Shown: positions 29,823-64,000 of the stretch, one piece after another
How positions within the stretch are numbered: the first letter of the stretch is position 1
Layout of the letters: each line of letters begins with the position of its first letter
NCBI GenBank assembly: GCA_902766785.1
Contig: CACXEO010000080.1
Location: 17,332-81,331, forward strand
Length of the DNA: 64,000 bases
DNA from: Oscillospiraceae bacterium
GTDB taxonomy: Bacteria; Bacillota; Clostridia; Oscillospirales; Ruminococcaceae
Direction: 5' to 3'
Translations under genes and position numbers: made by a program
Notes under the pieces: generated by a model
The model's database searches: none
Told to the model about the DNA's origin: nothing
Seen by the model: only the letters and a program-made list of their open reading frames with translations

Positions 29823-30203
29823 TTATTCTGCCGCCTTTACCGCCCTTTTGTGTTGATAGGAGCGTACCCCCTTGACAACCGAAGAGGCCAAGAAAACACC
29901 TGCCAGTACAAACGGACAGTCAAGTACTTCGGGCGAAGCAATCCAAGATATCAGTTCAAATTGGGACAGTATCCACCCAACGCTGCCTATGAAAATTACA
30001 AGATCGGTAACCCAGCCGGAACGAAGCAAAAACGCTGCCAGCGCCACAAGGAGGGCAATTATTCCAAGCCCGATATCAGGAACCAACGGGGGAATGGAAA
30101 AGTGGGGCGCACGCGCCAATGCTTCATAGTACAGGTTTAAAAGCCAGGGCAGCGCCAAAAAAAGGATTGCTTTGGCAAAGCACATCCAATAACACTTTTT
30201 CAT
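29823..30203 (-). CDS. Small hypothetical membrane protein (about 4 TM).
   Basis: 126 aa, hydrophobic throughout, located in a low-GC islet. No recognisable family. Confidence 0.4.
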   Translation of the reverse strand: MKKCYWMCFAKAILFLALPWLLNLYYEALARAPHFSIPPLVPDIGLGIIALLVALAAFLLRSGWVTDLVIFIGSVGWILSQFELISWIASPEVLDCPFVLAGVFLASSVVKGVRSYQHKRAVKAAE

Positions 30204-30215
30204 GGTGAAACTCCT

Positions 30216-30932
30216 TTATATTGCGTAATAAATCAAATCCGCATTATAATTATACGAAGCTGTTCCTTTTTTAAACGTATAAGTTCCAAACAAAGAAAGT
30301 TGAGAAGATTGGGTAGCAACATTTTGTACCCAAAGGTTCTGTTCAAAAATATATGTCATATCATCTAATACCGTACTGCTTTTTGTCCCACTCCAAGTAG
30401 CGCTTGCATTAATAGAAGATACCTGTCCATAATCTATGCTGGTTTTGGCCCAAGTATAACCTGTATTCACGCTTACCACTTTAGCCTGAACACTTCTTAA
30501 CCTAGTAAAAGTAGTACCACGTGAATCAACTTTCTCTTCAAAACCAATTCTTTGATAAATCCTACCATATGTACAGGTATAATTCCTGTCTAAAGAGCCT
30601 GAATTGGCAGTAGTTGAAAAAAGGCTTACTAATAGGACTACGCCGTCATCTTCTTCAATCCTTTTTGAAACAGCTGTGTTGATTACTGTATCATCCTGAT
30701 TGTTGTTTTGTACAACACTTGCACGCGCAATACTACCCCGCTGAACATTTTGAAGCGTCAGGTAATCCTGTTCCATCTCTTCATAATAGGAACCATATTG
30801 GTCTAAAATTTCTTCGGTGGACAAAAAATCTTCCGCCTCATTACCCGATATATCACTTTATGCATTAACAAAAAAAGCGCTAGAGCTTACAACAAATAAT
30901 ACCGATATAACAACACTGATTAATCGTTTCAT
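30216..30932 (-). pseudogene. Hypothetical secreted Asn/Ser/Thr-rich protein gene interrupted by an in-frame TAA (30858-30860) directly after a predicted signal peptide.
   Basis: ATG at 30930-30932 encodes MKRLISVVISVLFVVSSSAFFVNA, then TAA. The same frame continues as SDISGNEAEDF-STEEILDQYG... through the 202-aa ORF called from a TTG at 30824. Confidence 0.45.
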
Positions 30933-31186
30933 GATAACGCCGCCTTTAATTATATTAACTACATGATTTTTCATCTTCTGTTTCAATATTTTGTTTAAAT
31001 AAAAAATTCATTGGAATCGACTCCTTTGTTATAACTATATTGCTTATATATTAATAATAAGCCTTTTATTAACATTATACAATATAATATATATTGAATG
31101 TTAATAAAATATATGAATTATTTATAAATATATTACTAGATATAAAAAGGCATCCGGGCCAGCCCCAGATTCCTTTTTAGCTTTTT

Positions 31187-31861
31187 CTATTTTCCTTCCA
31201 GTGGAACTACTTTCAGGTAGACCGCACGGTGGCGGTTGGTAATCACCTGATCCCGGTGAAGTTTACCGAAAAACCACTGCTTAAACTCCACTGTTTTACC
31301 GACCTTTTCAAGCACGTTGTTGATTCTGGAGTTGACATCAATCGGTGGGACATTTAAAAATTCACAGATGCTGACCGGCGCGTCATGGGTGATGATATAA
31401 TCCACCTTGTTGCCCCATTTTACCAACTTTTCAAACGCGTTTGCCTCTTCTTCCGCAGTCGGCTGTTCTTCCGGCCACCAGAGGTTGTTTTCCTCACGCA
31501 GCATTCCATCGGCGCTTTCGCCCCCGCCAAACGCGAAAAAGGTTTTTCCCTCCAGCGTGTATATTTCGCCGCGGCAGAGCTGCATCAACCGCCCTGAAAG
31601 AACCCGCACCGTTCCGCCGCACCATTCCTTTTCAGGATATTCCTTCAAGAGCTCGTAATTGTCATGGCAGCCGGTGACAAAAACAGTGTTAAACCGTTTC
31701 TTCCCTATTTTTTTGAGAAGCTTTTTCTCCTTTTTGCCGCCGTCCCAAACAAAGCCGAAATCGCCGCAGACAATCAAAGTGTCTCCCTTTTTCAATTTTT
31801 TAATCCCGGTTTTTTGAAAACGGCTAAACTCCCCGTGAAGGTCGCCGGTAATATAAATCAT
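31187..31861 (-). CDS. Calcineurin-like metallophosphoesterase.
   Basis: 224 aa. MIYITGDLHGE, GDFGFVWD and GCHDN motifs. Confidence 0.7.
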   Translation of the reverse strand: MIYITGDLHGEFSRFQKTGIKKLKKGDTLIVCGDFGFVWDGGKKEKKLLKKIGKKRFNTVFVTGCHDNYELLKEYPEKEWCGGTVRVLSGRLMQLCRGEIYTLEGKTFFAFGGGESADGMLREENNLWWPEEQPTAEEEANAFEKLVKWGNKVDYIITHDAPVSICEFLNVPPIDVNSRINNVLEKVGKTVEFKQWFFGKLHRDQVITNRHRAVYLKVVPLEGK

Positions 31862-32133
31862 AGTTTTTCGCCCTCGCTGTCTTTTGCGTTATTCTGCCGT
31901 GCACTTGATAGCCCGGTGTAAATCGGCTATAATAATCTGTGACGTCTTTGACGGCATTCTGAAATTTTGACGCCGGTTTTTGCCGCGCCATTCAGGCCAA
32001 TTTTTCAATTAAACGCGGCGCCGTATATCAAGCAGGCCGCAGACGGCAGTTCCGCTGTAACAGCTCTAAAAAGCGGTCTGCCGAAAAACTTGGAATTATT
32101 CTTATCATACACTTAAATGGAGGAATTGTCTAC

Positions 32134-36174: not shown

Positions 36175-36492
36175 TCAAACAAAAACAAACTGTACCAGCA
36201 GCATATAAACCAGGGTGCCGCCTGCAATGGAAAGCAGCATATTCTTTTTCCAGAAATGCGGCCCCGCAACCGCCAGGACGGCAATTCCCTCCGGTACGCC
36301 GAACGGGAATTCCAAAACCGTGACGTTTTTGAGGCAATAGACAATCAACAGCCAATCACCGCATAAGGCAGAACTGTTGACAGATAGCCAATATACTTCG
36401 GCGTAGGCTTGCTCGCCGGGAAAACCAGAAAGGGCAGGAAGCGGGTGAGCATCGTCCCCAATACGACGACAGCAACCGTGATGCATCGTCAT
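36175..36492 (-). pseudogene. azlD: azlD-like branched-chain amino acid transport protein gene with a frameshifted N-terminus.
   Basis: The C-terminal about 60 aa ([54 protein letters not shown]) match AzlD. The N-terminal about 45 aa of the ORF are non-membrane junk. Confidence 0.55.
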
Positions 36493-36547
36493 GATTCCTC
36501 CTTTCTTCCGGACAAAGGCCGGCGCAGCAGAGTCAAGACCGCGAACA

Positions 36548-37192
36548 TCAGCGCCATAGCGGGGAGAATAAACTGTTCCGCACCGAAAACAAGCAGACTA
36601 AAAAAGAAACTGCCAACCCAATCGCTGCAGGCAGATGCCGTTTCTGCGCCCTCCACTGGTCAATAAAAATGACCACAAAGAGGGCCGTCATCACAAAATC
36701 AATTCCCTTTGTATTAAAGGTCACCAGGCCGCCCAACAGGCCGCCGAGGGTGGAACCCACTACCCAATAGATGTGATTAAGCACGGTTACAAAAAACATA
36801 AGCCAATCACGATCCACCCCTTCCGGCGGCTTGGCAGAATTTATAGTGAAAGACTCTCACACATTCCAAAAATGAGATACCATTTCTTTTTTCCGGTTCC
36901 CTTATATGTTTCAAGCATTAAAACCCCGTAAAAAAGATGACGGGCGTTGACCATCACTGTCAGCAGAAGAGCATAAAGGGGGTTAAAAGCCGAAGCCAAA
37001 AGGGAGATGGTAACAAATCCCATAGAGCCCGCAAAAATTGTCATGCTCATGACCATTGGCTAAACAAAACCCTTTGCTGTTCATATAGACCCCATAAGCG
37101 AGCCCAAGAAAGAGGAACCCAGCGCAGATCAGAAGTGTGAGCGGGAAGGCAGCGCGAAAAGCCTTTCTCCAGGTACCTGTTTTTTCTTTCAT
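36548..37192 (-). pseudogene. azlC: azlC-like branched-chain amino acid permease gene split into three ORF fragments by at least two frameshifts.
   Basis: Fragments at 36983-37192 (N-terminus, ...AFPLTLLICAGFLFLGLAYGV), 36841-37056 (MSMTIFAGSMGFVT...VNARHLFYGV) and 36548-36817 (GIDFVMTALFVVIF) read colinear with AzlC. Confidence 0.65.
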
Positions 37193-37284
37193 CCGCCTCT
37201 CCCTCTCGCTTTAATTCATAAGGCCGTTTTTTCTGTTTTCTGACGAAAAACATCCCCCACGGGCATAAATTCTAACAACAGAAA

Positions 37285-37327: not shown

Positions 37328-37951
37328 TTAGCAGAATGCAAGGGCAGCTTCCGCTGCGGCAGAAGCATTGTCGGTATAGCAATCCGCCCCAATAGTATCG
37401 CAGAAGCTCTGAGTGACCGGCGCACCGCCAATCATAATTTTGCAGTCCATCCCTTTCGCTTTCGCAAGGTCTACAACCTCTTTCATCTGGCCCATGGTCG
37501 TGGTCAGAAGAGCGGAACAGCAAATAGCGTCCGCCTTGTTTTCTTGCGCTGCTTCAATAAATTTTTCCGGCGCAACGTCAACACCCAGGTCAATGACGTT
37601 CAAGCTCTTGCTCTCCATCATCATTTTAACCAGGTTTTTTCCGATATCGTGCAGGTCTCCCTTGACGGTGCCAATGACAACGGTTCCCTTCGGTTCAAAA
37701 CCCTCAGCGATGAGCTTCGGTTTAAGGACCTCGATCCCCATATTCATCGCGCGGGCGGAAATCAGAACCTCGGGCACGAAAACTTCATTGTTTTTGAACT
37801 TTTCACCAATGACGTTCATACCGGAAAGAAGCCCTTCCTCCAGAATCTCCTGCGGGGAAATACCCTCATCCAGCGCCTGGGCAACCAGTTCCTTTACCTT
37901 TGGGGCGCGGCCCTGCTGTAAAAACGTGCTCATTTCCTCTAAGATGCTCAT
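37328..37951 (-). CDS. Stand-alone corrinoid (cobalamin)-binding protein with a B12-binding cap and Rossmann domains (MtbC/MtaC-like). The start was refined to MSILEEM, preceded by AGGAGA.
   Basis: 207 aa. DxHxxG motif (GDLHDIGKNLV), SxL (CCSALLTTTM), MIGGAP, and an N-terminal helical cap (ISPQEILEEGLLSGMNVIGEKF). Confidence 0.8.
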   Translation of the reverse strand: MSILEEMSTFLQQGRAPKVKELVAQALDEGISPQEILEEGLLSGMNVIGEKFKNNEVFVPEVLISARAMNMGIEVLKPKLIAEGFEPKGTVVIGTVKGDLHDIGKNLVKMMMESKSLNVIDLGVDVAPEKFIEAAQENKADAICCSALLTTTMGQMKEVVDLAKAKGMDCKIMIGGAPVTQSFCDTIGADCYTDNASAAAEAALAFC

Positions 37952-37979
37952 ATCAATTCTCCTTTTCATTTGGCCATTA

Positions 37980-39176
37980 TTATATATTTCCGCGGCTTTC
38001 CCGGTATCTCTTGGGAGAGACACCAACCAGCCGCTTAAAGACTTTTGTAAAGTAGCTCTGATCTTCAAAACCACAGAGGCTTGCCACATCCACTAAGGCG
38101 CAGCCGCTGTCTAGCAGCATCAGCTTCGCTTTGTCGATCCGCACCTTATTCACATAGGCCGAAAGGCTTTCGCCGGTTTCCTCTTTAAAAATGCGGCTCA
38201 GATAAGACTTGCTGAGCGAAACATGCTCGGCAATTTCATCAAGCGAAAGCTTCTCCGCAAACCGGTTCTTTACATACTCAGCAACCTTGAAAACAACGTC
38301 TGAATGCTTGATTCGGGAGAAGTCAAATGAATAATCAATAAACCGGTGAAGCAGCGCGGACAGCCACGCGCCAATATCTTCTACCGAAGTAAGCTTTTCC
38401 AGTTCCCGGATGAAGCTTTCGTTGCAGACGAAAATTTCATTCAAATCCGCCCCCGCCTCTATCGTCGCCCTTGAAATAACGACGGCGAGCTCAAGCGCCC
38501 GGGCCTTCATGGTATCCAAGTCATATTCCGCCACAAAATAAATGTGGCCCAGCAGCTGGTTTAACAGCTCCAGCGAACCTTTTTTGTCCCGGCGGTAAAT
38601 TAAAGCCTGCAGCTTTTTCTCCGCATCTATCGGGTAACGGTACCCGGGTTCCTCGAACTGTTGCCGGGCGGAATAAAGCTCTCCCAGCACCTTTTCCTGT
38701 TCATAGACCACCGATCCGGCAAAACTGTGCGCCCGCCCGGAAATTCCAGCGGTGAGAAGAGCCATTGTCTCAGCAAGGTCGTTGACCCTGCGGGTGGAAA
38801 AAACAGGAAGAACTTCCAAACGGCCGGAAAAAACGCCGTCCTGCAGAAGATAATCCTCCGGTTCACCCATCAGGAGCGGGCCCGCCACCAACCCAGCGGC
38901 CAGCCTTCCCTGTTCATCAGAAACCGAAGATGCTACAAAAATCATTCCCACCGGGCAGTAGTAAATATATTTACCGTTCCAACGGTAGGCCTCATGGCAG
39001 CCGTAAAGGCAGGTATTAAGCGCTTCACAGTCTTCCCTGTGGCAATAAAAACAAAACGTATTTTCACCCGGAGGACTACCTAAGTAGCGCTTTTGAAGAA
39101 CGTCAAGACAGGAAACCTGCACCTGGGCAAGCCCCGCAAGGTGTTCTGCACAGGAGATACATTGTTCCACCAACAC
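37980..39176 (-). CDS. AraC-family transcriptional regulator with an N-terminal Cys-rich PocR-like sensory domain.
   Basis: 398 aa. C-terminal AraC HTH (SLDEIAEHVSLSKSYLSRIFKEETGESLSAYVNKVRIDKAKLML). N-terminal FCFYCHREDCEALNTCLYGCHEAYRWNGKYIYYCPVGMIFVA resembles the PocR CxxC...YRCHAGL core. Confidence 0.7.
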   Translation of the reverse strand: MLVEQCISCAEHLAGLAQVQVSCLDVLQKRYLGSPPGENTFCFYCHREDCEALNTCLYGCHEAYRWNGKYIYYCPVGMIFVASSVSDEQGRLAAGLVAGPLLMGEPEDYLLQDGVFSGRLEVLPVFSTRRVNDLAETMALLTAGISGRAHSFAGSVVYEQEKVLGELYSARQQFEEPGYRYPIDAEKKLQALIYRRDKKGSLELLNQLLGHIYFVAEYDLDTMKARALELAVVISRATIEAGADLNEIFVCNESFIRELEKLTSVEDIGAWLSALLHRFIDYSFDFSRIKHSDVVFKVAEYVKNRFAEKLSLDEIAEHVSLSKSYLSRIFKEETGESLSAYVNKVRIDKAKLMLLDSGCALVDVASLCGFEDQSYFTKVFKRLVGVSPKRYRESRGNI

Positions 39177-39365
39177 AGTTCACCCTTTTCTTACTATTCT
39201 TAAATTATTATATCTTCTGCCCTAAAAAAAATTATAGTAGATTTTTTTACTTTTTGGTATATCGTTATCATAACGCATCTTGAGCGCAAGGTCAACCTGC
39301 CTCCTTTTGAGTTAAAAAATTGACGAACTTGCATAACAATTAAAGCTCCTGTATAATAAATGTAA

Positions 39366-40808
39366 ATGTTTTTGCAAAATTATAATACTACATATAAGCA
39401 AGGTGTCACTATGTTTTTTTTCAACGCTCAAAAATTGCTCCGCGGGGAACCTCCTTCCGGGGAAATCCCGTCAGATAAAAACATTTTAAAAAGAACGCTC
39501 ACAATTGCGTGGCCTTCAATTGTTGAATCCTTTTTGGTCGCCCTGGTCGGTTTTATCGACACCATCATGGTTAGCAGCCTGGGGGATGCCGCCATTGCTG
39601 CCGTTGGCCTGACGACCCAGCCAAAATTTATCGGTCTGGCTTTTTTTATTTCCTTGAACGTAGCAATTTCCGCTATTATCGCCCACCGGAAAGGCGAAGG
39701 CGACCGGGAGAGCGCCAACCGGGTTTTGATGCAGGCGCTGATGATTACTGTTGGGATGACCGTCATTGTCAGCGTGACCTGCATGGTATTCGCGGATCCA
39801 ATCATCACCCTGGCGGGCGCCAACGCGGATACCCAGCAGGAAGCCGCCGATTACTTCAGGATTATTATGGGCGGTATGATTTTTAATGTTGTCTCCCTGT
39901 GCATCAACGCTGCCCAGCGTGGCTGCGGTAACACCAAAATCGCGATGCGCACAAACATTGTTTCGAACCTCGTCAACGTTGTTTTCAACTACCTGCTGAT
40001 TGGCGGTAATTTTGGATTTCCGGCTCTCGGCGTCAAAGGTGCGGCGGTTGCAAGCGTCATCGGCACGGTAGTCGCCATGGGAATGAGTATCTTTTCGGTC
40101 ATGCACCCGGATGGTTACCTTTCATTCCGGCATATCACCAAAAACGAAATCCGGTTTGACAGGCGCTCCATCCGGTCGATCATCAACATCGGTTCCAGTA
40201 CGCTGGCGGAGCAGATTTTCCTGCGGATTGGCTTCCTAACCTTTACCATTGTCGTTGCAAACCTGGGCACCACCGCTTTTGCGGCTCATCAGGTCGGGAT
40301 GAATATTATGAGCTTGTCCTTTTCCTTTGGAGATGGTTTGTCGGCCGCATCCATTGCCCTCGTCGGGCAGAGCCTCGGCGCCAAGCGGGTGGATATGGCA
40401 CGGATTTACGGGGGTTTCAGCCAACGGCTTGGCCTAATTTTTGCGGCGTTTCTATCCATTATATTCCTAACCCTCGGCAGGCAAATCTTCAATCTGTTCT
40501 CTGACGGTGAGAAGTTTCTGGACTACGGCGTCATGATCATGACTGTTCTGACCGTGGTTGTATTCCTGCAAATTTCACAGGTGATTTTTTCCGGCTGCCT
40601 TCGGGGTGCGGGAGATGCCAAGTTTACAGCTTTCGTCTCGCTTGTCAGTGTCATGCTGATCCGGCCGGGCGCGGGCTGGCTGTTTTGTTACCCGATTGGT
40701 CTGGGACTCTTTGGCGCCTGGATTGGTCTGACGTTCGACCAGTTCTGCCGGTTTATCCTGACCTATATCCGCTTTAAAAGCGGGCGCTGGACTAAATATG
40801 ATGTATAA
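39366..40808 (+). CDS. MATE-family efflux transporter.
   Basis: 480 aa, 12 TM, MATE repeat architecture. Confidence 0.85.
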   Translation: MFLQNYNTTYKQGVTMFFFNAQKLLRGEPPSGEIPSDKNILKRTLTIAWPSIVESFLVALVGFIDTIMVSSLGDAAIAAVGLTTQPKFIGLAFFISLNVAISAIIAHRKGEGDRESANRVLMQALMITVGMTVIVSVTCMVFADPIITLAGANADTQQEAADYFRIIMGGMIFNVVSLCINAAQRGCGNTKIAMRTNIVSNLVNVVFNYLLIGGNFGFPALGVKGAAVASVIGTVVAMGMSIFSVMHPDGYLSFRHITKNEIRFDRRSIRSIINIGSSTLAEQIFLRIGFLTFTIVVANLGTTAFAAHQVGMNIMSLSFSFGDGLSAASIALVGQSLGAKRVDMARIYGGFSQRLGLIFAAFLSIIFLTLGRQIFNLFSDGEKFLDYGVMIMTVLTVVVFLQISQVIFSGCLRGAGDAKFTAFVSLVSVMLIRPGAGWLFCYPIGLGLFGAWIGLTFDQFCRFILTYIRFKSGRWTKYDV

Positions 40809-43875: not shown

Positions 43876-43907
43876 TTAAAAAGGCCCTCCTTGGGAGGGC
43901 CTTTTTG
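43876..43907 (-). terminator. Bidirectional terminator 3' of floT.
   Basis: AAAAAGGCCCTCC-TTG-GGAGGGCCTTTTT. Confidence 0.8.
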
Positions 43908-55990: not shown

Positions 55991-56258
55991 TTTATTCACC
56001 CCCGGTAAAACCGGGGGATTTTTCTTGCCTTCTCGGCGACACTAATTTAAAAGCGGCCGCCAGGCCGGCCGCTTTTAATCTTCATCGCCATTTTAACAAC
56101 ACTATGCTCGTAAAGAATTATTATTTTCCCACTCATTGAAAATAGTGTGCCGCAGGATATACTCCAGAGGATAAATCAATGCTCCTTTTCATCAACACAA
56201 ACATACAAGTTGACTTTTCAGCTTTTTGGCGGATAATAAAAGAAAAGGTGGTGTTCAC

Positions 56259-56849
56259 ATGTTTTGCATAAAATGTGGAACTAAATACGAGGGGTATTTT
56301 TGCCCCAAATGCGGAATGAGCAGCGCAATACAAAATAATAACGCATCAAGGCTCCTAAACAGCCCTTTTAAAAAGCTGGCCCTGTTTTCAATCGGCGGTG
56401 TCTGCCTTTTCTTGGGGCTTCCTTTTTCTGTATCGCTGCTTGCACCTCCCGGGCTTGAAAATCTTTCTTTATTTATCGTCGGAATGGTTTTTGTAGCCGT
56501 CGCCGCGTTCTGTTTTATTATGGCTTTTCGCGTTATAAAACGCGAACGTAAATATAACCGCTATGCAGCATTAATCGGCGTCAGAAAAAAAATTCCCCTT
56601 AACTGGATCGCGCAGAAGATGAATAAAACTGTGACCGAAGTTATAAAGGATTTACATAAAGCAGTTAGCCTTGGCCTGTTTCCAGATGCCCACATAGATG
56701 AAAAAAACGGTTATCTGCTTTTCCCAAACAGAGATTTAGGCGCGATGGAGACCGTCATCTGTCCAAACTGCGGCGCAGGTGTAGATATTATGACAGGGTA
56801 CCAATCCAACTGCAATTTCTGCGGAGCAATTTTAAACCAGAAACAATAA
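56259..56849 (+). CDS. Hypothetical membrane protein with N- and C-terminal zinc ribbons. The start was refined to MFCIKCG, preceded by AAAGGTGGTG.
   Basis: CIKCGTKYEGYFCPKCG, two TM helices, a wHTH-like segment, and CPNCGAGV...CNFCG. Confidence 0.4.
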   Translation: MFCIKCGTKYEGYFCPKCGMSSAIQNNNASRLLNSPFKKLALFSIGGVCLFLGLPFSVSLLAPPGLENLSLFIVGMVFVAVAAFCFIMAFRVIKRERKYNRYAALIGVRKKIPLNWIAQKMNKTVTEVIKDLHKAVSLGLFPDAHIDEKNGYLLFPNRDLGAMETVICPNCGAGVDIMTGYQSNCNFCGAILNQKQ

Positions 56850-57327
56850 AAATCTGGAAGCCAGCCCCCGTAGCTTTTGATTTGTTTGTGCTCACCAACT
56901 AAAACGCAATTTCGCCCTGAAGTTTATGAAAGCATCGCTTTCCGGCAAAGTATGCACTTAGTCGACGTTTAAAAAATACTCCATTGAAAAATACAGCAGG
57001 TAAGGCACTGTGGAGACCAAAAAGACAATGGAGAAGCGTTTCTTCCACTGTTTTGCATGAAGCAAAACACTTGCCCGGCACATTTGCAAAGCCCTTATAT
57101 GCACGATTCCGCTCTCTATATCTGTCAGAAGCTAATACCACCGGCAAAGCCGGTAGCTTGCATTGACCCTATAAGGACTAATGACAGTCGAGTCTTAAGA
57201 CGCATGAACAATCATGACTTCAGGCACCCGTATGTCAAGCCCACGACAAAAAAATTTGCATCTTTTCTGAAGTTTTTTCGGGCAGCCGTAATAACTGCCC
57301 GTATCTATTCCATACGGTATTCATGGC

Positions 57328-58053
57328 TTATTTCTCCTTTCCAGATTTCACCGATCCTAAAAAGTCTTGCATAACATATTCTATCTCAATCCGATCTCCC
57401 GGAAAAACATATACCTTGCTGATAAGCCGGTCTATCAGCGATTGCGTCAGGACATCGGCATTGTCTACTTCCTGAACAATTTCCCTTTGTTTCAGCTTTG
57501 CCTCATAGTCACTTTGTATCCGTTTGGTCTGCGCCGTGATGGTAGCATGAACATTCTTTGCCTGTACCAGTTCAGCGTCATATACCGCTTTCTGTGACCG
57601 ATAGGATTCCAGATCAATCTCTCCAAGTGCATACTGTTCATAAAGCTGCCGTTTACTGTCTTGGATAACCCGCAGCTTTTCTTCATGCTCGGCCTGTTGG
57701 ACAGTCTGTAAATCCAGTTTATCCTTGCTGCTGTCAATCCCCAGAGCAGGAAGCATCTGCGCCCGGATTGTTTCAAGGACTGCCTGCTCCAAATCAGACA
57801 TCTTCACCCGCACACCATGACAGGGAAAATTTTCTGCCACTTCGGAATGACGGCAGTAAAACCATGCTCCATTTCTGAGTGACATGGCATGATCGCAGCA
57901 GCCACAGAATACTTTTCCACGAAGAAGGTAATCACGGCGTTTTTTATTCGGAAGGGAGAACCGCTTGATGGAAGCGTTGGCCTGCTTGAACAGCTCCTTA
58001 CTAACAATCGCAGGATGATGGTCAGGAATTTTGAACCATTCACTTTCAGAGCC
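57328..58053 (-). pseudogene. 5'-truncated large serine recombinase. Only the C-terminal recombinase-domain tail, the zinc beta-ribbon and the coiled coil remain; the catalytic resolvase domain is absent.
   Basis: The minus frame reads ...SEWFKIPDHHPAIVSKELFKQANASIKRFSLPNKKRRDYLLRGKVFCGCCDHAMSLRNGAWFYCRHSE... then a coiled coil. An in-frame TGA at 58054-58056 is followed by an unrelated gene. Terminator hairpin CGGGCAG...CTGCCCG at about 57280-57302. Confidence 0.75.
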
Positions 58054-58544
58054 TCACCATAGCTGCCGGAAGCAAATACCCGTTCCGTCATTTCTTTTGC
58101 CGGGTCCTTCAGCCCATGCTCCCGCAGGGTGCGGCCTGCGATCCCAACCAGATTGAACACATTTCCGTCCTGGCCGATCAGGGCACAGCCCGGCTTTTCC
58201 TGTTCCACCGCAGGTTCTCCGATAAAACCGCCCAGACGGTTCGGCACAAAGTCCGACAGCCAGGTGCCACCGAAATTTGCATGGGTCTGTAAGCGCCACA
58301 TGGCGAGCTTTCCGATATTCAGATCCACACCCTCAAAGGGGTAAAGCAGACAGGTCAGGTCCTCGTACTGAAATGTGCTGATGTTCTGGAACTTTGAACC
58401 ATTCTGCAAAATACCAGCCTCGGTCAGCATATCATTGATCCCATCCAGCCATTCCTGCAGATCTCCGCCGCAGCCGATCAGGACCAGTCCTTCCTGATCC
58501 TCCATACGGCGAAGTTCTTCTGTGGTAATTGTGGTAATACTCAT
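58047..58544 (-). CDS. Hypothetical protein (unrecognised conserved-looking domain). Its formal ORF runs on to 57804 in a frame overlapping the recombinase remnant, so the 3' end is probably fused or truncated.
   Basis: MSITTITTEELRRMEDQEGLVLIGCGGDLQEWLDGINDML...TCLLYPFEGVDLNIGKLAMWRLQTHANFGGTWLSDFVPNRLGGF...SGSYGEAL, then low-complexity junk overlapping the recombinase frame. Confidence 0.4.
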
Positions 58545-58557
58545 ATAAAATCGCCTC

Positions 58558-59034
58558 CTATCGTTCCTGTTGATATTTGATTTTTGGTTTATCCGTTTTT
58601 ATTTCCGGTATTCTCTGTAACTGTTCCCGGACTGATACTTTCTGCTCAGCAGCGATAATATCTGACAGAGGCCGCTCCCAGCGCTTTCCAAAGCCCCGGA
58701 TCACGGTTTCGTCCTGAGCGCCATTTTCTCTAAACATTTCCAATGTACGGAAAGCCCGGTCAAACAACCATACGCACCGTTCATCCACGCTGGGCGCAAA
58801 ATGGATCACACCTTTGGGATAATTGCTGCCGGTACCGATCCAGCCCCGAACAAAATCATCATAGCCCTTTGTGATTCCTGCCCCGGCCAGCTCGTCAGCA
58901 TGACTGGAAAGCAGCAGATTCTTCGGTTCATACTGATACCCCAAAACCAATATGCCGGTCTTCGGATTGTACATAAATCTTCGGTTCTGTATCTGCTGCA
59001 TATCAATGGATTGCCGGGTGGTATCTACACACAT
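58558..59034 (-). CDS. Hypothetical protein.
   Basis: 158 aa. No recognised family (FMYNPKTGILVLGYQY...SSHADELAGAGITKGYDDFVRGWIGTG). Confidence 0.35.
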   Translation of the reverse strand: MCVDTTRQSIDMQQIQNRRFMYNPKTGILVLGYQYEPKNLLLSSHADELAGAGITKGYDDFVRGWIGTGSNYPKGVIHFAPSVDERCVWLFDRAFRTLEMFRENGAQDETVIRGFGKRWERPLSDIIAAEQKVSVREQLQRIPEIKTDKPKIKYQQER

Positions 59035-59205
59035 GCTCTCTTTTTTGATTGCTATGTTCTCTATCTGCCTCCCTCCTGATTCTTTTCCTTTGTCCGCAAC
59101 TTACCCCTGTTTCGGTGGGCCGGAGTATTCTTATATAGGCCCACTTAAAACCGCAGCGAAAAAGCCCTGCTATGCAAGCACTTTTGGAGCTAAATTGCGT
59201 ACACA

Positions 59206-59580
59206 TCACCTTATTTTTTGCCGTTCCCGGCGCTTTCGTTCCCGCTCAGATTTTCGCCTTGCATAGATCCGGCAAGCATCCGAACAATATGCCTGGCTGG
59301 TGGTGGGAAGATATGCCTTCCCACACACCGGGCAGTTTTTTTGACGCATGGAAGTATCTTCGCCTGTAATGGCAGCTTCCAGCGCCGGATCCGTTGGCAG
59401 CAAGGCATCCCGGAAGTACCGGCACAGTGACCCGGTCCACCATTTGTTCAGCATATAGCAGGGGCAGTCCAGCGGAAGACATATCTTGTCCGTACTGTCA
59501 TAGTTGGCGCAATGACCAACCAGGTGCCGGATCGCCGCACGTTCCGATCTTGTCAGTTCCCGCGAAACCGGGGCGCTCAT
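59206..59580 (-). CDS. Cysteine-rich KTR-type protein (a common conjugative-element cargo in Firmicutes).
   Basis: 124 aa. CANYDSTDKICLPLDCPCYMLNKWWTGSLCRYF and CPVCGK...CSDAC, with a basic C-terminus. Confidence 0.5.
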   Translation of the reverse strand: MSAPVSRELTRSERAAIRHLVGHCANYDSTDKICLPLDCPCYMLNKWWTGSLCRYFRDALLPTDPALEAAITGEDTSMRQKNCPVCGKAYLPTTSQAYCSDACRIYARRKSERERKRRERQKIR

Positions 59581-60419
59581 TTGCGCCTGCCTTTCGCAGC
59601 CGGAAATTCCAGCTTGAAGTTCACATATTTTCCGCCTGTATCATCCAGAAGCACCACCGCATCATAGGTGCTGCCGGTCTTTTCACTGTACAGTCCGGAC
59701 ATAGAAACGCGGCCCTCTTTTAAAAGAGCAGCCGCAACAGATTTTGTGATGGTTTTCTTCTTGGAAGAAAAGAATTTATTATCTTTCCAGAGTGCAAAGG
59801 AACAGTCCCGATTGTCACAGAAAAAGCCCTTTTTGCCCTCATACACGGAAGCACCGCAGCGGGGGCAGGTGCCCACAGCTTCACGCTTTCCGTGCGCATC
59901 CGGGAACAGTGCCGCAAAGCGTTCCTCCGGGACAGAATGTTCTCTGACCAGTTCCCGGCACATTTCCATGATCCCATCCATAAAGGAATCTGCGGAAAGC
60001 TCGCCACGTTCCACCTGCTTCAGCATGGATTCCCATTCGGCGGTCAGGATCGGGGACTTGACTTTTTCCGGGAGGACAGCAATCAGATTGACACCTTTTT
60101 CCGTAGGGAGAAGCTGCTTTTTCTTACGCTGCACAAAACCGGCAGAAACCAGCTTTTCCAGTGTAGCCGCACGGGTAGCCGGGGTGCCCAGACCCTTACG
60201 CTCGGAATCCTCCGGCATATCCTCAGCCCCGGCAGTCTCTATTGCCGCCAGAAGACTGTCTTCGGTGAAATGCTTCGGTGGGGATGTCTTGCTTTCCCGA
60301 ACACTGGCAGAGACCATTCCAAAAACCTGCCCCTTTTTCAGCACAGGCAGTGCGGTATTCTTTCTTTTTACGCTGCAAGGTCTCAGCGCAGAGCCGCACC
60401 TGCTCGTCGAAAACGGCAT
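59577..60419 (-). pseudogene. topB: 5'-truncated DNA topoisomerase III (TopB) C-terminal fragment with a probable additional frameshift in an A-rich run near 60370.
   Basis: NTALPVLKKGQVFGMVSASVRESKTSPPKHFTEDSLLAAIETAG...KGLGTPATRAATLEKLV... then C-terminal zinc ribbons (CPRCGASVYEGKKGFFCDNRDCSF). Toprim and N-terminal domains are absent. The abiEii terminator lies immediately upstream. Confidence 0.75.
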
Positions 60420-60518
60420 TGACTTCCTTTTGTGTGATAAAACATCCCTCCTTTGACATAGAAAAACCGGCTACTCCAATTTCAATCAGAATAGCCGGTG
60501 GCATAAAATATATAGTTA

Positions 60519-61517
60519 TTAAAGTGAGTTGATCTCTTTTTCCAGTTCCCGGACAGCACCCATAACGGTATCAAAATCAGGAACATCTCCATAAAGCATG
60601 TCTTTCATGGCCTCGTAATCCGCAGCCAGTGCTCCAAATCGGTACTCCGGTGGAATCAGCTTCAATGTTCCGGGTACTGCCTCAGGGTATTTTGCCCATG
60701 CTCTCGGATAGAATTTCATTTTGAAATCCACCACTGTTTTCAGCAGTTCCACCCGCGCAAAAGCAGCATCCTTAACAAAAGTCTGTGCCATACGGTAGAG
60801 GTCGTAATAATGTCTGGAATACCGTTGGGGCATTTCCAGATGTTCCGGTCTGTTTGCCTCGTGGTGCAGGATCGTGGCTTTCTCCCAAAAGGTTCGCTCC
60901 GGTGCGACTGTCAGGATCGCCGTATCTTTCTGCGCAAAAATCTTCGGGTAATAAGTTGCCGCATAAGGTTCGATTTGGGCAATTTTAGCAGGGGTCCATG
61001 CTGCCAGAGCACCAATTTCCAGACGAATGACCTGCAAGGTCGATTGGTTGGTAAACAGGTGGGGATAGGCAAAAATAACCGTTTGTCTGTCTTTTTCGTC
61101 TATGTAGATATTGGCCTCAATGCCAAGTTCCTGTGACAGTTCTGCCTTAATTGTCGGACAAAACTGTTCTGCCAGAAAGACCTCTGCCCGTGCATTGGCC
61201 TCTTTGTTAAAAGCATCCTGTTTGGTGTTGGAACGCTTCTCCCAGGGTTCGTCTTTGCCATAGCCCAGCACCCGCCAATCCAGAATCAGATCAATATCTT
61301 CGGAAAAGCGGCTGATCAGATTAAAGGCTTTTGATAAACTGGTACCGCCCTTAAAGGTGATTGCATCTTTCCACGGACAGCGGTGGAAAAGATAATCCAG
61401 TGTAAAGCATACCCAAAAGTCTTTTTCCACAATGGCATCGTTCAGGCCCATCTTATCTGCTGTATTTCGGAACAGCTCTTGCCGGTCAATTTCTGACAGT
61501 CTTGCTATTTTTCTCAT
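60519..61517 (-). CDS. abiEii: AbiEii/AbiGii-family nucleotidyltransferase toxin (DUF1814) of a type IV TA / abortive infection system.
   Basis: 332 aa. Nucleotidyltransferase motif context (FKGGTSLSKAFNLISRFSEDIDL), a 4-nt ATGA overlap with the upstream partner, and a terminator at about 60468-60500. Confidence 0.8.
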   Translation of the reverse strand: MRKIARLSEIDRQELFRNTADKMGLNDAIVEKDFWVCFTLDYLFHRCPWKDAITFKGGTSLSKAFNLISRFSEDIDLILDWRVLGYGKDEPWEKRSNTKQDAFNKEANARAEVFLAEQFCPTIKAELSQELGIEANIYIDEKDRQTVIFAYPHLFTNQSTLQVIRLEIGALAAWTPAKIAQIEPYAATYYPKIFAQKDTAILTVAPERTFWEKATILHHEANRPEHLEMPQRYSRHYYDLYRMAQTFVKDAAFARVELLKTVVDFKMKFYPRAWAKYPEAVPGTLKLIPPEYRFGALAADYEAMKDMLYGDVPDFDTVMGAVRELEKEINSL

Positions 61518-62134
61518 TGCGCGTTACCTCCGCATATCTGCCGGATCGTATCATAGACCCAATCCGTAGATTCAGTTGCTTCTTTCAAACAAGCTTTCTT
61601 GTCATCAGCCGTTAATTTTTCAGAAAGGACCTGAATGATCTCTGGGGTCACATTCGATTTTCCTAAAGTCTTTAATGCCTGAATGACCAAACTCGTCATA
61701 TAGGACAGCCCGGTGATCTCTTTGTTGGTTCGGTGCTTAAATTCCAGCTTTGTGGAATTCCACTCATAGGTCTTGTAGGGTCCGTCGCTGATGTAGGACC
61801 AAACCGCTGTTACCTGCGTGGATAGCCCTAATAGATTCAATGCCGTATTTCCACAAGGCGCAATGGTCCAGTGATAACTCCGGGCCAATGCCTTTGCAAC
61901 CGCGTCTGGGTCTGCTGCTACATATTCGTCAAGCAGCTTACTGTATTTGGGCTTTTCATACACGCCCTTTAATATTCTGCGGAGCGTTCCGGTCTGTGTT
62001 AGTCTGTTCAGATTTCGCCGGATCGTTTCGGTATCTGCAATATCAGCAAAATCAGAACTTACAAAGATTGTACCCTCTGGCACACAGCCAATTCGTTCTT
62101 GTATCTGTTTGGAATACCCATTTGCCACAGTCAT
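61514..62134 (-). CDS. abiEi: AbiEi-family antitoxin / transcriptional autoregulator (wHTH).
   Basis: 206 aa. N-terminal wHTH (ETIRRNLNRLTQTGTLRRILKGVY) and a positively charged C-terminal domain, translationally coupled to abiEii. Confidence 0.7.
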   Translation of the reverse strand: MTVANGYSKQIQERIGCVPEGTIFVSSDFADIADTETIRRNLNRLTQTGTLRRILKGVYEKPKYSKLLDEYVAADPDAVAKALARSYHWTIAPCGNTALNLLGLSTQVTAVWSYISDGPYKTYEWNSTKLEFKHRTNKEITGLSYMTSLVIQALKTLGKSNVTPEIIQVLSEKLTADDKKACLKEATESTDWVYDTIRQICGGNAQ

Positions 62135-62142
62135 CGCCTCCT

Positions 62143-62173
62143 TTGTCCCGAATATTATATATTATTCGGGACA
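62143..62173. repeat. 31-bp repeat copy 1 with perfect 10-bp inverted arms (GTCCCGAATA-TTATATAT-TATTCGGGAC), immediately upstream of the abiEi RBS.
   Basis: Read directly in the sequence. A near-identical copy lies 140 bp away at 62283-62313. Confidence 0.65.
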
Positions 62174-62282
62174 AATTTTCAATAGATTACGCAATTCTTG
62201 TTTAGAGTATTTCCAGAATAAACAGAAGTATTCAATTTGGAAAATGAAATTTGATAATTCACGCCAGAAGATCTATGCTCAG

Positions 62283-62313
62283 TTGTCCCGTATTTTATAT
62301 ATTATTCGGGACA
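62283..62313. repeat. 31-bp repeat copy 2 (three mismatches in the left arm), abutting the stop of the 62316-62840 gene.
   Basis: TTGTCCCGTATTTTATATATTATTCGGGACA against copy 1 TTGTCCCGAATATTATATATTATTCGGGACA. Confidence 0.65.
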
Positions 62314-62315
62314 TT

Positions 62316-62840
62316 TTATGCGCTCGGCAGATAGATCCAGTCGTGCATCAGGCATACAGAAGGTTCGTCCTCCCTGGGAACCAGCCGGTAAGTACATTCC
62401 TCATACACGGTCCGTTTGTCCTCGATCTCCATGCCGTAAGCCTTATAGAAACGGTACTCCAGATTGGAAATAATGCAGCGGAGGGTCTGCAGCGCCTCAC
62501 GCTGGCTGGTGATGATCAGCTCCCGGTCAATGCTCCGCAGTAAAAACAGCAGGGACTTGTAAAGTTGGATCTCTGTCCGATAGGGGCGGCAGTCCATCTT
62601 TTCAAGCCATGTATTAAAAGCAACAGGCCCGCTCTGGATCACCGTGCGCTCCGGGTGATAATACTCGTAGCAGTCCAGGTTGGCAGTATTCAGAAGATAC
62701 AGCATTTCCTTCACTTCATTTTCCGGCATATCATAAAACCGCAAAAGAGACCGGTACAAATGGACATAGCCGGGGATCGAAATAATGGTATTTACCATGT
62801 AATAAAAGACCTCCTTATAAATGGCAGGAGCGGAAGGCAT
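62316..62840 (-). CDS. Hypothetical protein.
   Basis: 174 aa with no recognised family. Codon usage is consistent with coding. Confidence 0.3.
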   Translation of the reverse strand: MPSAPAIYKEVFYYMVNTIISIPGYVHLYRSLLRFYDMPENEVKEMLYLLNTANLDCYEYYHPERTVIQSGPVAFNTWLEKMDCRPYRTEIQLYKSLLFLLRSIDRELIITSQREALQTLRCIISNLEYRFYKAYGMEIEDKRTVYEECTYRLVPREDEPSVCLMHDWIYLPSA

Positions 62841-62869
62841 TGGCCCTCCGCTCCCGGTTTCAAAAGTAT

Positions 62870-63376
62870 TTAGTTTTCAGGTACCGCGATCAGCTTGCCC
62901 ATGACGATAAAGCGTTCCGTGCCGCCAGGTCTGCAAGTGGAGAGGGTCAGCACCTTATCGCTGGAAGTAACCGTTACATCACCTTCCACCACAGAGCGCT
63001 CCAGCATGGTGTTCAGCCAGGTCGTATAGGCTCCATCGTCCTTCCAGCTTAAACGCCAGGGAGAAGTATCTTCCCCGGACTCGGAAGGCTTGGCAGGAAA
63101 TGCCGCGAACAGTTCCACAACATAACCACCTTCAGGGGTGACAAGAAACATTTCCTTATGCGCGTCGAAAAATTCCTGACTGTCATATTCATTCAGAACA
63201 GCAAACATGGAACCATCCCGCATATTGTGGCCGTAGATAATGGTATTGCGGTCTGCAAAATCATCCTGATTTTCATAATCCGCAAACAGGCAGCCGGTCT
63301 TGTTGTAGGTACCATCGTAAAGGTGGTCCAGATAGTAATCGTTGTTGTCAGTCTGCGTACTTTCATCAGAATATCT
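62870..63376 (-). pseudogene. Sortase (class B-like) gene fragment lacking its N-terminus. In-frame stops lie at 63377 and 63422.
   Basis: The minus frame reads ...DNNDYYLDHLYDGTYNKTGCLFADYENQDDFADRNTIIYGHNMRDGSMFAVLNEY...VLTLSTCRPGG. The catalytic His (IYGHN) and the TLxTC Cys motif are present, but no start, signal or TM. Confidence 0.6.
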
Positions 63377-63453
63377 TCAAATATATTGATAATTGCACTG
63401 TTCCTCAACAAGGATGGGATATTATTTTCCATTCACAAAGCCATGATATCTAT

Positions 63454-63873
63454 GTGGAAATGAAAAATAAACACAATACGATGAATTCTTCGTCTTCTCA
63501 AAAGACATATATGCGGATGATGGCAAAAGTATTAGAAGACGAGCGTTGTGAATGTTTTCTAGTTGAAGCTCTGGCACCTAAGTCAAGAAATATAATCTGG
63601 TCTTGCTCTTTAGATGGGAAAAACTTTCAGGTACCTCAAATACATAGAGTATCAATTGATCAGTTTTATAAAATAGTGACGGGAAACGAAAATGCATTTT
63701 TCGATTTATGCCAACAGCTTCCAAAAACTATTCACAAAGTAATTCAGCTAGAGGGAGTATGGCTATTAGAGAAAGACACCGTGTTGCAGGAGCTCCATCA
63801 AATAAACCCTGATGTATTAACTGCGCTCTATATATTAGCATTTAAAACTTACGAGGGTTTTGATAGGCTTTGA
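63454..63873 (+). CDS. Hypothetical protein in a low-GC segment.
   Basis: 139 aa with no recognised family. AT-rich context. Confidence 0.25.
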   Translation: MEMKNKHNTMNSSSSQKTYMRMMAKVLEDERCECFLVEALAPKSRNIIWSCSLDGKNFQVPQIHRVSIDQFYKIVTGNENAFFDLCQQLPKTIHKVIQLEGVWLLEKDTVLQELHQINPDVLTALYILAFKTYEGFDRL

Positions 63874-64000
63874 TTGAGCTTATATTTACAATCGAGCCCA
63901 ACCTGCGTAATTTGTTGTAAATATTACAACATCAAGTTATCAGTACCTCAAATTTCTTAAATGCATTATTTTAACAGAGGTCAGCATTGACGCATCGCTT

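Follow-up and report, generated by a model that had tools for sequence, protein, structure and literature searches.

A PocR-domain AraC regulator and a methyl-carrier-type corrinoid protein encoded as a conserved two-gene unit in Clostridia

Why should a corrinoid protein of the methyltransferase type be encoded beside a transcriptional regulator, with no methyltransferase in the vicinity? The question is raised by a 64,000-nucleotide (nt) stretch of DNA from an Oscillospiraceae bacterium (assembly GCA_902766785.1, contig CACXEO010000080.1, positions 17,332 to 81,331 of the forward strand), which at its full length we call the window, and in which a gene for an AraC-family regulator is followed by one for a corrinoid (cobalamin-binding) protein. 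A first-pass annotation had proposed that this pair is an orphan, B12-dependent regulatory module comparable to AerR and CarH. The module that our analysis reveals is real and largely of a known kind, a gene pair already known from Clostridia, in a methyltransferase system that is yet to be characterised. With modest confidence, we favor an operon of the MtaR/MtaC1 type, in which a substrate-sensing activator would be co-transcribed with a methyl-carrier corrinoid protein, the enzymes and the activase being encoded elsewhere in the genome.

As read from its open reading frames (ORFs) and Pfam matches, the two-gene unit (39176-37328, minus strand) comprises an intact gene for a PocR-domain AraC regulator, then a gene for a methyl-carrier-type corrinoid protein, with the following features:

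39176-37980, minus strand: AraC-family regulator, 398 amino acids, GTG start (ORF and Pfam)
37979-37952, minus strand: intergenic spacer of 28 nt, carrying the ribosome-binding site AAAGGAGA before the ATG of the corrinoid gene
37951-37328, minus strand: corrinoid (cobalamin-binding) protein, 207 amino acids (ORF and Pfam)
37319-37290, minus strand: intrinsic terminator directly after the stop of the corrinoid gene, closing the two-gene unit
39267-39295, minus strand: promoter-like site upstream of the AraC gene (TTGACC, 17 nt, TATGAT; 10/12 consensus matches)
39237-39259, minus strand: conserved box TACCAAAAAGTAAAAAAATCTAC, a candidate operator for the AraC regulator, overlapping an A/T-rich imperfect inverted repeat

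The coordinates, the 28-bp gap and the 207-residue product agree in every detail with those given by the first-pass annotation. The terminator consists of a 13-pair hairpin (6 G-C pairs) followed by the T-run TATTTTTTCT, and a scan of the 28-nt spacer disclosed no terminator-like site between the two genes. Judged by its consensus match, the site at 39267-39295 is a candidate sigma-70-like promoter; it is situated in the 189-nt region (39177-39365) between the AraC gene and a divergent gene for a MATE efflux protein. Short spacers are also common among relatives, as exemplified by 52 homologous regulator-then-corrinoid pairs with a median spacer of 41.5 nt, 40 nt or less in 26 of them and overlapping genes in some. 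With this layout, the AraC regulator and corrinoid genes are probably co-transcribed.

Residues 4-77 of the corrinoid protein match the B12-binding_2 cap (PF02607, 77.8 bits) and residues 90-191 the B12-binding Rossmann domain (PF02310, 93.7 bits), both above the Pfam cut-off; the translation also harbors D99-L-H101-D-I-G104 (DxHxxG), S146-A-L148 (SxL) and G175-G176 (GG), so that the cap plus Rossmann architecture and all three motifs described in the first pass are present. Together, these motifs predict His-on, base-off cobalamin binding. The closest relative in the PDB is the Moorella thermoacetica protein 1Y80 (E 3.4e-55, ~55% identity over residues 3-202), followed by MttC (7XCN), MtmC (3EZX), the Desulfitobacterium protein 4JGI and MetH (E 3e-30), with CarH as a remote match (E 5e-6). 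That the nearest solved relatives (1Y80, MttC, MtmC, 4JGI and MetH) are catalytic corrinoid proteins or domains supports a methyl-carrier role. Among NCBIfam models, the general methyltransferase-corrinoid model TIGR02370 is narrowly missed (200.8 vs. a cut-off of 215.3), and the named equivalogs score well short of theirs (MtgC_2 215 vs. 370, MtbC 177.9 vs. 350, MtaC 137.7 vs. 420, CarH 34.7 vs. 400). By these scores, the protein is a relative of methyltransferase-cognate corrinoid proteins that falls below every curated NCBIfam cut-off and corresponds to no named equivalog. Its family is very tight in Clostridia (~205-225 amino acids, 62-76% identity), and more than 8000 database proteins match it at E<1e-20, most among the matches listed being ~211 amino acids long and 72-76% identical. 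We considered a separate regulatory clade within this family and rejected it, as evidenced by interleaving of regulator-adjacent, methyltransferase-adjacent and lone proteins in one family at 65-75% mean identity. In short, the window protein shares cap, Rossmann domain and DxHxxG, SxL and GG motifs with Moorella 1Y80, MttC, MtmC, MtbC, MtgC and MtaC, but differs from the methyltransferase-cognate corrinoid proteins in adjoining no substrate methyltransferase and in belonging to a tight family of its own below the curated cut-offs.

The regulator carries a PocR domain at residues 13-145 (~nt 39140-38742; PF10114, 30.7 bits vs. a cut-off of 23.9, E 3.1e-7) and a C-terminal double helix-turn-helix (HTH) at residues 315-393 (~nt 38234-37998; Pfam HTH_18 and HTH_AraC), with a helical linker at about residues 150-290 between them. 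With a PF10114 match above the Pfam cut-off and nine cysteines within the first 74 residues, the earlier description of a Cys-rich, PocR-like N-terminus proved apt. Homologues number in the hundreds (~400 amino acids, 40-55% identity), and those with a named source are mostly from Oscillospiraceae and other Clostridia, including the cultured Harryflintia acetispora and Anaerotruncus (sp. AF02-27); Sporobacter termitidis (L060) is a further cultured carrier of a homologue. Almost invariant in this family are the triad Cys42, Cys45 and Cys74 and the block YG(C)xEAYRWNGKYIYYCPxG. The fold of the PocR domain resembles small-molecule effector domains of the GAF/IclR-like kind, and no solved structure of a PocR domain was detectable by sequence. 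Salmonella PocR is a 1,2-propanediol-responsive AraC activator of pdu and cob. Common to that protein and the window regulator are the PocR domain, the AraC HTH and a link to B12 metabolism; unlike Salmonella PocR, however, the window regulator has no pdu, cob or microcompartment context (neither pdu nor cob genes are among the Pfam-assigned ORFs of the window). In addition, the NCBIfam PocR equivalog NF047788 scored 84 bits against a cut-off of 500, with residues 289-395, comprising the HTH, as the only part aligned.

The partners of the corrinoid protein are missing from the window. Hidden Markov models (HMMs) built from the neighbours in related loci were run on the six-frame translation of all 64 kb, where those for the RACo/RamA activase, URO-D/MtaA-like methyltransferase, DUF1638, DUF2284, CobW and pterin-binding methyltransferase found no match and the corrinoid-protein HMM matched this gene only. 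Pfam was run on 18 window ORFs (the pair, its neighbours and other large ORFs), and all larger ORFs submitted have assignments unrelated to corrinoid methyl transfer, among them aldo-keto reductases and similar families. No mtaB, mtaC2 or mtaA follows the corrinoid gene or is present in the window; for MtaB/MttB, the ground for this is that no ORF of suitable size lacks an assignment, no MttB or MtaB models having been run. Neither a cobalamin riboswitch nor any other Rfam family matched the window. Unrelated, too, are the immediate neighbours, namely azlC and azlD, the divergent MATE gene (39366-40808) and genes for a GH51 arabinofuranosidase, a GH172/DUF2961 protein and a KdgT-type permease. 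Elsewhere, the window has the appearance of ordinary chromosome, with rpoB, sigA, dnaG and groEL recognized by their N-terminal sequences. The six-frame search and the Pfam assignments thus bear out the earlier statement that methyltransferase and activase partners are lacking in the window. The label orphan is apt within these 64 kb, but not in related genomes, where the same pair adjoins RACo, DUF1638, URO-D/MtaA-like, CobW and DUF2284 genes.

This became apparent in two surveys. On the regulator side, one genome per species was scanned, returning 80 loci with 10-kb flanks onto which the family HMMs were mapped, with neighbour assignments confirmed by Pfam and NCBIfam. The corrinoid gene lies directly downstream of the regulator on the same strand in 24/70 genome loci, a count confined to regulator loci with enough sequence, and at least one corrinoid-system gene is found in the flanks of 53/81 regulator loci, 81 being the denominator of the other counts on this side. 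Recurrent neighbours are a RACo-type reductive activase, an MtaA/CmuA-like methyltransferase of the URO-D family, DUF1638, DUF2284 and a CobW-like GTPase; a pterin-binding methyltransferase with FolD, FchA and MetF occurs near the regulator in a few loci, pterin methyltransferases being linked in only 5. The fullest cluster (L011, L017, L076) reads URO-D, CobW, RACo (opposite strand), DUF1638, AraC, corrinoid protein. No MtaB was seen in the related loci, where the sole linked methyltransferase type is URO-D/MtaA-like. A common arrangement, found also in L095, combines RACo, AraC and the corrinoid protein but lacks any methyltransferase within 10 kb to the left or right, and bare pairs are limited among the regulator-side loci to the window, L080 and L040, the last being the closest species representative (Ca. 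Metaruminococcus gallistercoris) with the same MATE/AraC/corrinoid/azlCD synteny. In relatives, no conserved gene follows the corrinoid gene, and those found there are unrelated. On the corrinoid side, among 63 metagenome loci with enough upstream sequence, the regulator is directly upstream on the same strand in 25, adjacent and divergent in 9, within 6 kb in 4 and not found in 25, i.e. directly adjacent in 34/63 and within 6 kb in 38/63. Corrinoid orthologues (62-76% identity) are often found alone, without the regulator, several having nothing corrinoid-related within 10 kb; separation from the enzymes is therefore typical of the family and no argument for a sensor role. The first-pass annotation had named as fatal to its proposal operon data showing separate transcription of the two genes and no linkage in other genomes. 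Their adjacency recurs (24/70 genome loci and 25/63 metagenome loci), and the AraC/PocR and corrinoid pair is widespread as a unit among Clostridia, where RACo, DUF1638, a URO-D-type methyltransferase and CobW usually accompany it.

The pair is also maintained. Against L040, L093 and L094, synonymous sites are saturated (pS ~0.7), whereas only 1.6-2.9% of non-synonymous sites in the corrinoid protein differ (dN/dS ~0.01), and dN/dS for the regulator is ~0.04; identity to the L040 orthologues is 95.6% for the corrinoid protein and 76% for the AraC regulator. With both ORFs intact and dN/dS low, both genes are under strong purifying selection and the pair is not a remnant. Directly downstream of the corrinoid gene, azlC (36470-37215, minus strand) is a pseudogene which, compared to the intact 238-residue copy in the sister strain L172, has deletions of 5, 1, 3 and 1 nt, three of them frame-disrupting; azlD (36175-36492) still matches Pfam AzlD.

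The operon of MtaR/MtaC1 type that we favor builds on what is established above, namely the layout of the domains and of the operon-like unit, the neighbours that usually accompany the pair, its conservation and the purifying selection on it. In such an operon, the corrinoid protein would act as a methyl carrier that alternates between the Co(I) and methyl-Co(III) states. Likely partners are URO-D/MtaA-like methyltransferases, a RACo/RamA-type reductive activase, DUF1638, DUF2284 and a CobW-like GTPase, and the presence of RACo next to the pair in relatives implies a need for Co(I) chemistry. In the lineage of the window (sister strains and Ca. Metaruminococcus), these partners are not beside the pair and are presumably encoded elsewhere in the genome. 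The regulator would sense a small molecule, perhaps the methyl-donor substrate or a derivative, via its GAF/IclR-like PocR domain, and would then act through the AraC HTH to turn on both its own promoter and those of unlinked targets. The precedent is MtaR of Eubacterium limosum, a demonstrated activator of corrinoid methyltransferase genes. This AraC regulator shares the layout of the window protein (N-terminal PocR domain, helical linker, HTH), activates its promoter when placed in E. coli and is required for growth on methanol (PMC13602510). In the mtaR-mtaC1 arrangement of E. limosum, Acetobacterium woodii and Sporomusa, as in the window, the regulator gene comes first and the corrinoid gene directly next, and the CobW-like, DUF1638, DUF2284 and RACo genes of the window-pair relatives are of the corrinoid-related sort reported as accessory genes in acetogen mta clusters. 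Differences from the mta systems are: 1) the window has none of the mtaB, mtaC2 and mtaA genes of those operons, and the methyltransferase linked in relatives is only URO-D/MtaA-like; 2) the hosts here are Oscillospiraceae-type Clostridia of gut and digester, mostly lacking adjacent Wood-Ljungdahl genes.

Several observations weigh against this interpretation. No partner enzyme or activase is encoded within the 64 kb searched with the partner HMMs, and their location elsewhere in the genome is an assumption. The link to mtaR-mtaC1 is drawn from shared architecture, gene order and accessory families rather than from sequence orthology. In E. coli, MtaR activates its promoter with no response to methanol (PMC13602510). 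Knock-down of mtaC2, mtaB or mtaA abolishes growth on methanol, the catalytic corrinoid protein of acetogens being MtaC2 (PMC13602510); as knock-down of MtaC2 alone suffices, the regulator-linked MtaC1 would not be simply redundant with it. In Sporomusa sphaeroides, mtaR and mtaC1 are constitutive, with the catalytic genes induced by methanol (PMC12456013). In our assessment, the MtaC2 knock-down, constitutive mtaR/mtaC1 and the methanol-blind MtaR fit a signalling role for the regulator-linked corrinoid protein at least as well as a catalytic one.

That role would make the corrinoid protein a non-catalytic reader of the signal, a possibility that we regard as unlikely on balance but that gains some indirect support from the acetogen literature and from the strongly selected bare pair. 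Its state (apo or holo, Co(II), Co(I) or methyl-Co(III)) would be set by a substrate-specific methyltransferase, as the source of methyl-Co(III), together with RACo, and would be read by the PocR-AraC regulator, possibly through the Cys42/Cys45/Cys74 triad, so that the pair reports availability of B12 or of a methyl donor and controls unlinked genes. Consistent with it are the tight and widespread adjacency of regulator and corrinoid gene, with short or overlapping junctions, the persistence of the bare pair, very strongly constrained by purifying selection, in the window lineage, L040 and L080 at the least, and the several RACo-AraC-corrinoid trios (e.g. L095) in which no methyltransferase lies within 10 kb on either side; in addition, the Sporobacter loci L048 and L060 hold two corrinoid paralogues, one beside the regulator and the other beside a pterin methyltransferase. 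The literature points the same way, in that mtaC2 rather than mtaC1 encodes the essential catalytic carrier, MtaR on its own does not see methanol in E. coli (PMC13602510), and mtaR with mtaC1 is expressed constitutively next to induced catalytic genes (PMC12456013). However, interaction of the regulator with the corrinoid protein is conjecture, the corrinoid proteins of all contexts interleave with no distinct regulatory clade, the PocR domain has the fold of a small-molecule effector domain, and a regulator situated beside the gene it regulates is the simpler reading. Furthermore, 28/81 regulator loci have no corrinoid-system gene in their flanks and 25/63 corrinoid loci no regulator; as each gene occurs without the other, the link between them is facultative. 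A different assignment, which we consider improbable, is that the protein is the B12 subunit of a split, methionine-synthase-like or otherwise central methyl-transfer route served by RACo and DUF1638, with the AraC regulator tuning it to methionine, homocysteine or B12. In Phaeobacter inhibens, methionine synthesis depends genetically on DUF1638 and a RamA-like protein together with a separate B12-cap/B12-binding protein, whose gene has DUF1638 as its neighbour (PMC5764234). The same trio of families, the lone B12-cap/B12-binding protein, DUF1638 and RamA/RACo, clusters in the relatives of the window pair, and the corrinoid family is unusually conserved, abundant (>8000 at E<1e-20) and often lone, with MetH among its PDB matches (E 3e-30). 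The regulator is divergent from luxS and pfs in four loci and elsewhere stands beside a pterin methyltransferase with FolD, FchA and MetF. On the other hand, MetH scores well below the methyltransferase corrinoid proteins (108 vs. 190 bits), the luxS-pfs neighbourhood is limited to one related group, and the sole characterised member of the regulator family controls methanol use, not methionine synthesis. Moreover, no AraC/PocR regulator is part of the Phaeobacter system, none of its helpers (DUF1638, RamA-like) is in the 64-kb window, and most loci here have no linked pterin-binding methyltransferase; a homocysteine methyltransferase turned up in no locus, in a search that included no dedicated model for it.

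Two further explanations can be largely set aside. A decaying remnant of a lost methyltransferase cluster, with no function left, might be suspected from the absence in the window of the partner genes of relatives and from the frameshifted azlC next door, but both ORFs are intact, dN/dS is ~0.01 for the corrinoid protein and ~0.04 for the regulator at saturated synonymous sites, and pair and promoter box are conserved across species; this reading is largely refuted by the selection analysis and we deem it very improbable. The least probable in our estimation, to the point of being scarcely credible, is a light- or adenosylcobalamin-dependent anti-repressor of the CarH/LitR/AerR type, as the analogy in the first-pass annotation would have it. 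CarH is a single polypeptide with a MerR DNA-binding domain and a Wx9EH cap motif that uses adenosylcobalamin. What the window pair has in common with CarH, LitR and AerR is a B12-binding domain, with the same cap and Rossmann architecture, within a transcription control system, plus the weak CarH match (E 5e-6). Yet the analogy fails by sequence: the 207-residue protein has no tryptophan, which makes the Wx9EH motif impossible, and no MerR domain; its NCBIfam CarH score is 34.7 bits against a cut-off of 400; methyltransferase corrinoid proteins, with 1Y80 nearest (E 3.4e-55), match it some 50 orders of magnitude better; and its partner is AraC/PocR, not MerR or CrtJ-type. In addition, the relatives are linked to a Co(I)-generating activase, and the host resembles an anaerobe of gut or digester.

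If the regulator in the favored MtaR/MtaC1-type operon activates its own promoter, the conserved box at 39237-39259 is where it might bind. The pattern TACCAAAAAGTAAAAAA(N)T(N)TAC is the sole well-conserved stretch upstream of the regulator when the window is compared with L040, the intergenic region having otherwise diverged, and the box has no other occurrence in the window when up to 3 mismatches are allowed (0 expected). Counted over the 300 nt that precede homologous AraC operons, its core TACCAAAA has a frequency of 0.86 per kb vs. 0.045 per kb elsewhere, a ~19-fold enrichment that is overstated to some degree since the background is all other sequence and not intergenic sequence only; the core was found in 17/81 regulator loci. 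These data suggest that the box is a putative operator for autoregulation, possibly together with the divergent MATE gene, which could be co-regulated because the box lies in the intergenic region that the two genes share. The divergent arrangement of the MATE efflux gene (39366-40808) and the regulator is kept in Ca. Metaruminococcus (L040:8285-9766, MATE 80% identical). Two other candidates were rejected: 1) a second exact 13-nt copy, ATATACCAAAAAG, at 43891-43903 (minus strand) between a Band_7 gene and the KdgT-type permease, upstream of the latter, is probably a chance match, being absent from L040 and coinciding in part with the stem and A-tract of an intrinsic terminator (AAAAAGGCCCTCC...GGAGGGCCTTTTT); 2) the predicted MtaR site of E. 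limosum, GAAAAT-N7-AATTTC, has a 2-mismatch match at 39228-39246, inside the conserved box, but is too unspecific to be usable, with 30 such matches in the window vs. ~14.5 expected. As a separate observation, Lachnospiraceae homologues of the regulator (~43% identity; L043-L047, L055, L056) are found just after gyrB and gyrA and mostly directly before an aconitase gene, and none has a corrinoid-system gene within 10 kb. Boxes of the TTACCAAAA type are kept upstream in several of them.

Other observations in related loci and in the window are recorded here in their own right. The URO-D/MtaA-like methyltransferase beside the CobW-like gene (L017:2704-4206; also L011:228-1697, L033 and L037) is ~500 amino acids long, and its C-terminus matches thioredoxin-like families, namely the HUIPC-motif Trx-like (seleno)protein and the MJ0307 thioredoxin; we found no description of such a URO-D/thioredoxin-like fusion. 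In L020, L021, L026 and L051, the regulator is divergent from luxS and the MTA/SAH nucleosidase (pfs) gene, ~0.1-1.5 kb upstream, with no corrinoid gene in the flanks; this neighbourhood may be plain synteny or may hint at a homocysteine/methionine link. In the window itself, G+C is lower at 56000-64000 (0.43-0.48), where, as judged by sequence, ORFs resemble genes of mobile or defence elements, including a recombinase-like fragment (57328-57885) and a pair resembling an AbiEii-type nucleotidyltransferase toxin and its antitoxin (60519-62134). At 30000-32000, between groES/groEL and a metallophosphatase gene, G+C dips to 0.41 and the small ORFs are without assignment.

Corrinoid-dependent methyl transfer sets which methylated compounds, such as methanol, methoxylated aromatics and methylamines, are usable by anaerobes of gut and digester, and MtaR is the best-studied regulator of such systems. 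If the pair is only a detached carrier gene with its regulator, it amounts to ordinary annotation of an uncharacterised methyltransferase system. If instead the corrinoid protein is a co-sensor, the two proteins would form a signalling pair that relies on a B12 protein and differs from CarH and AerR, and this would explain why MtaR is blind to methanol in E. coli, why MtaC1 is kept beside the regulator and why the bare pair is under strong selection. The pair is a clean test system for whether the regulator-linked, MtaC1-type corrinoid protein is a carrier or a sensor.

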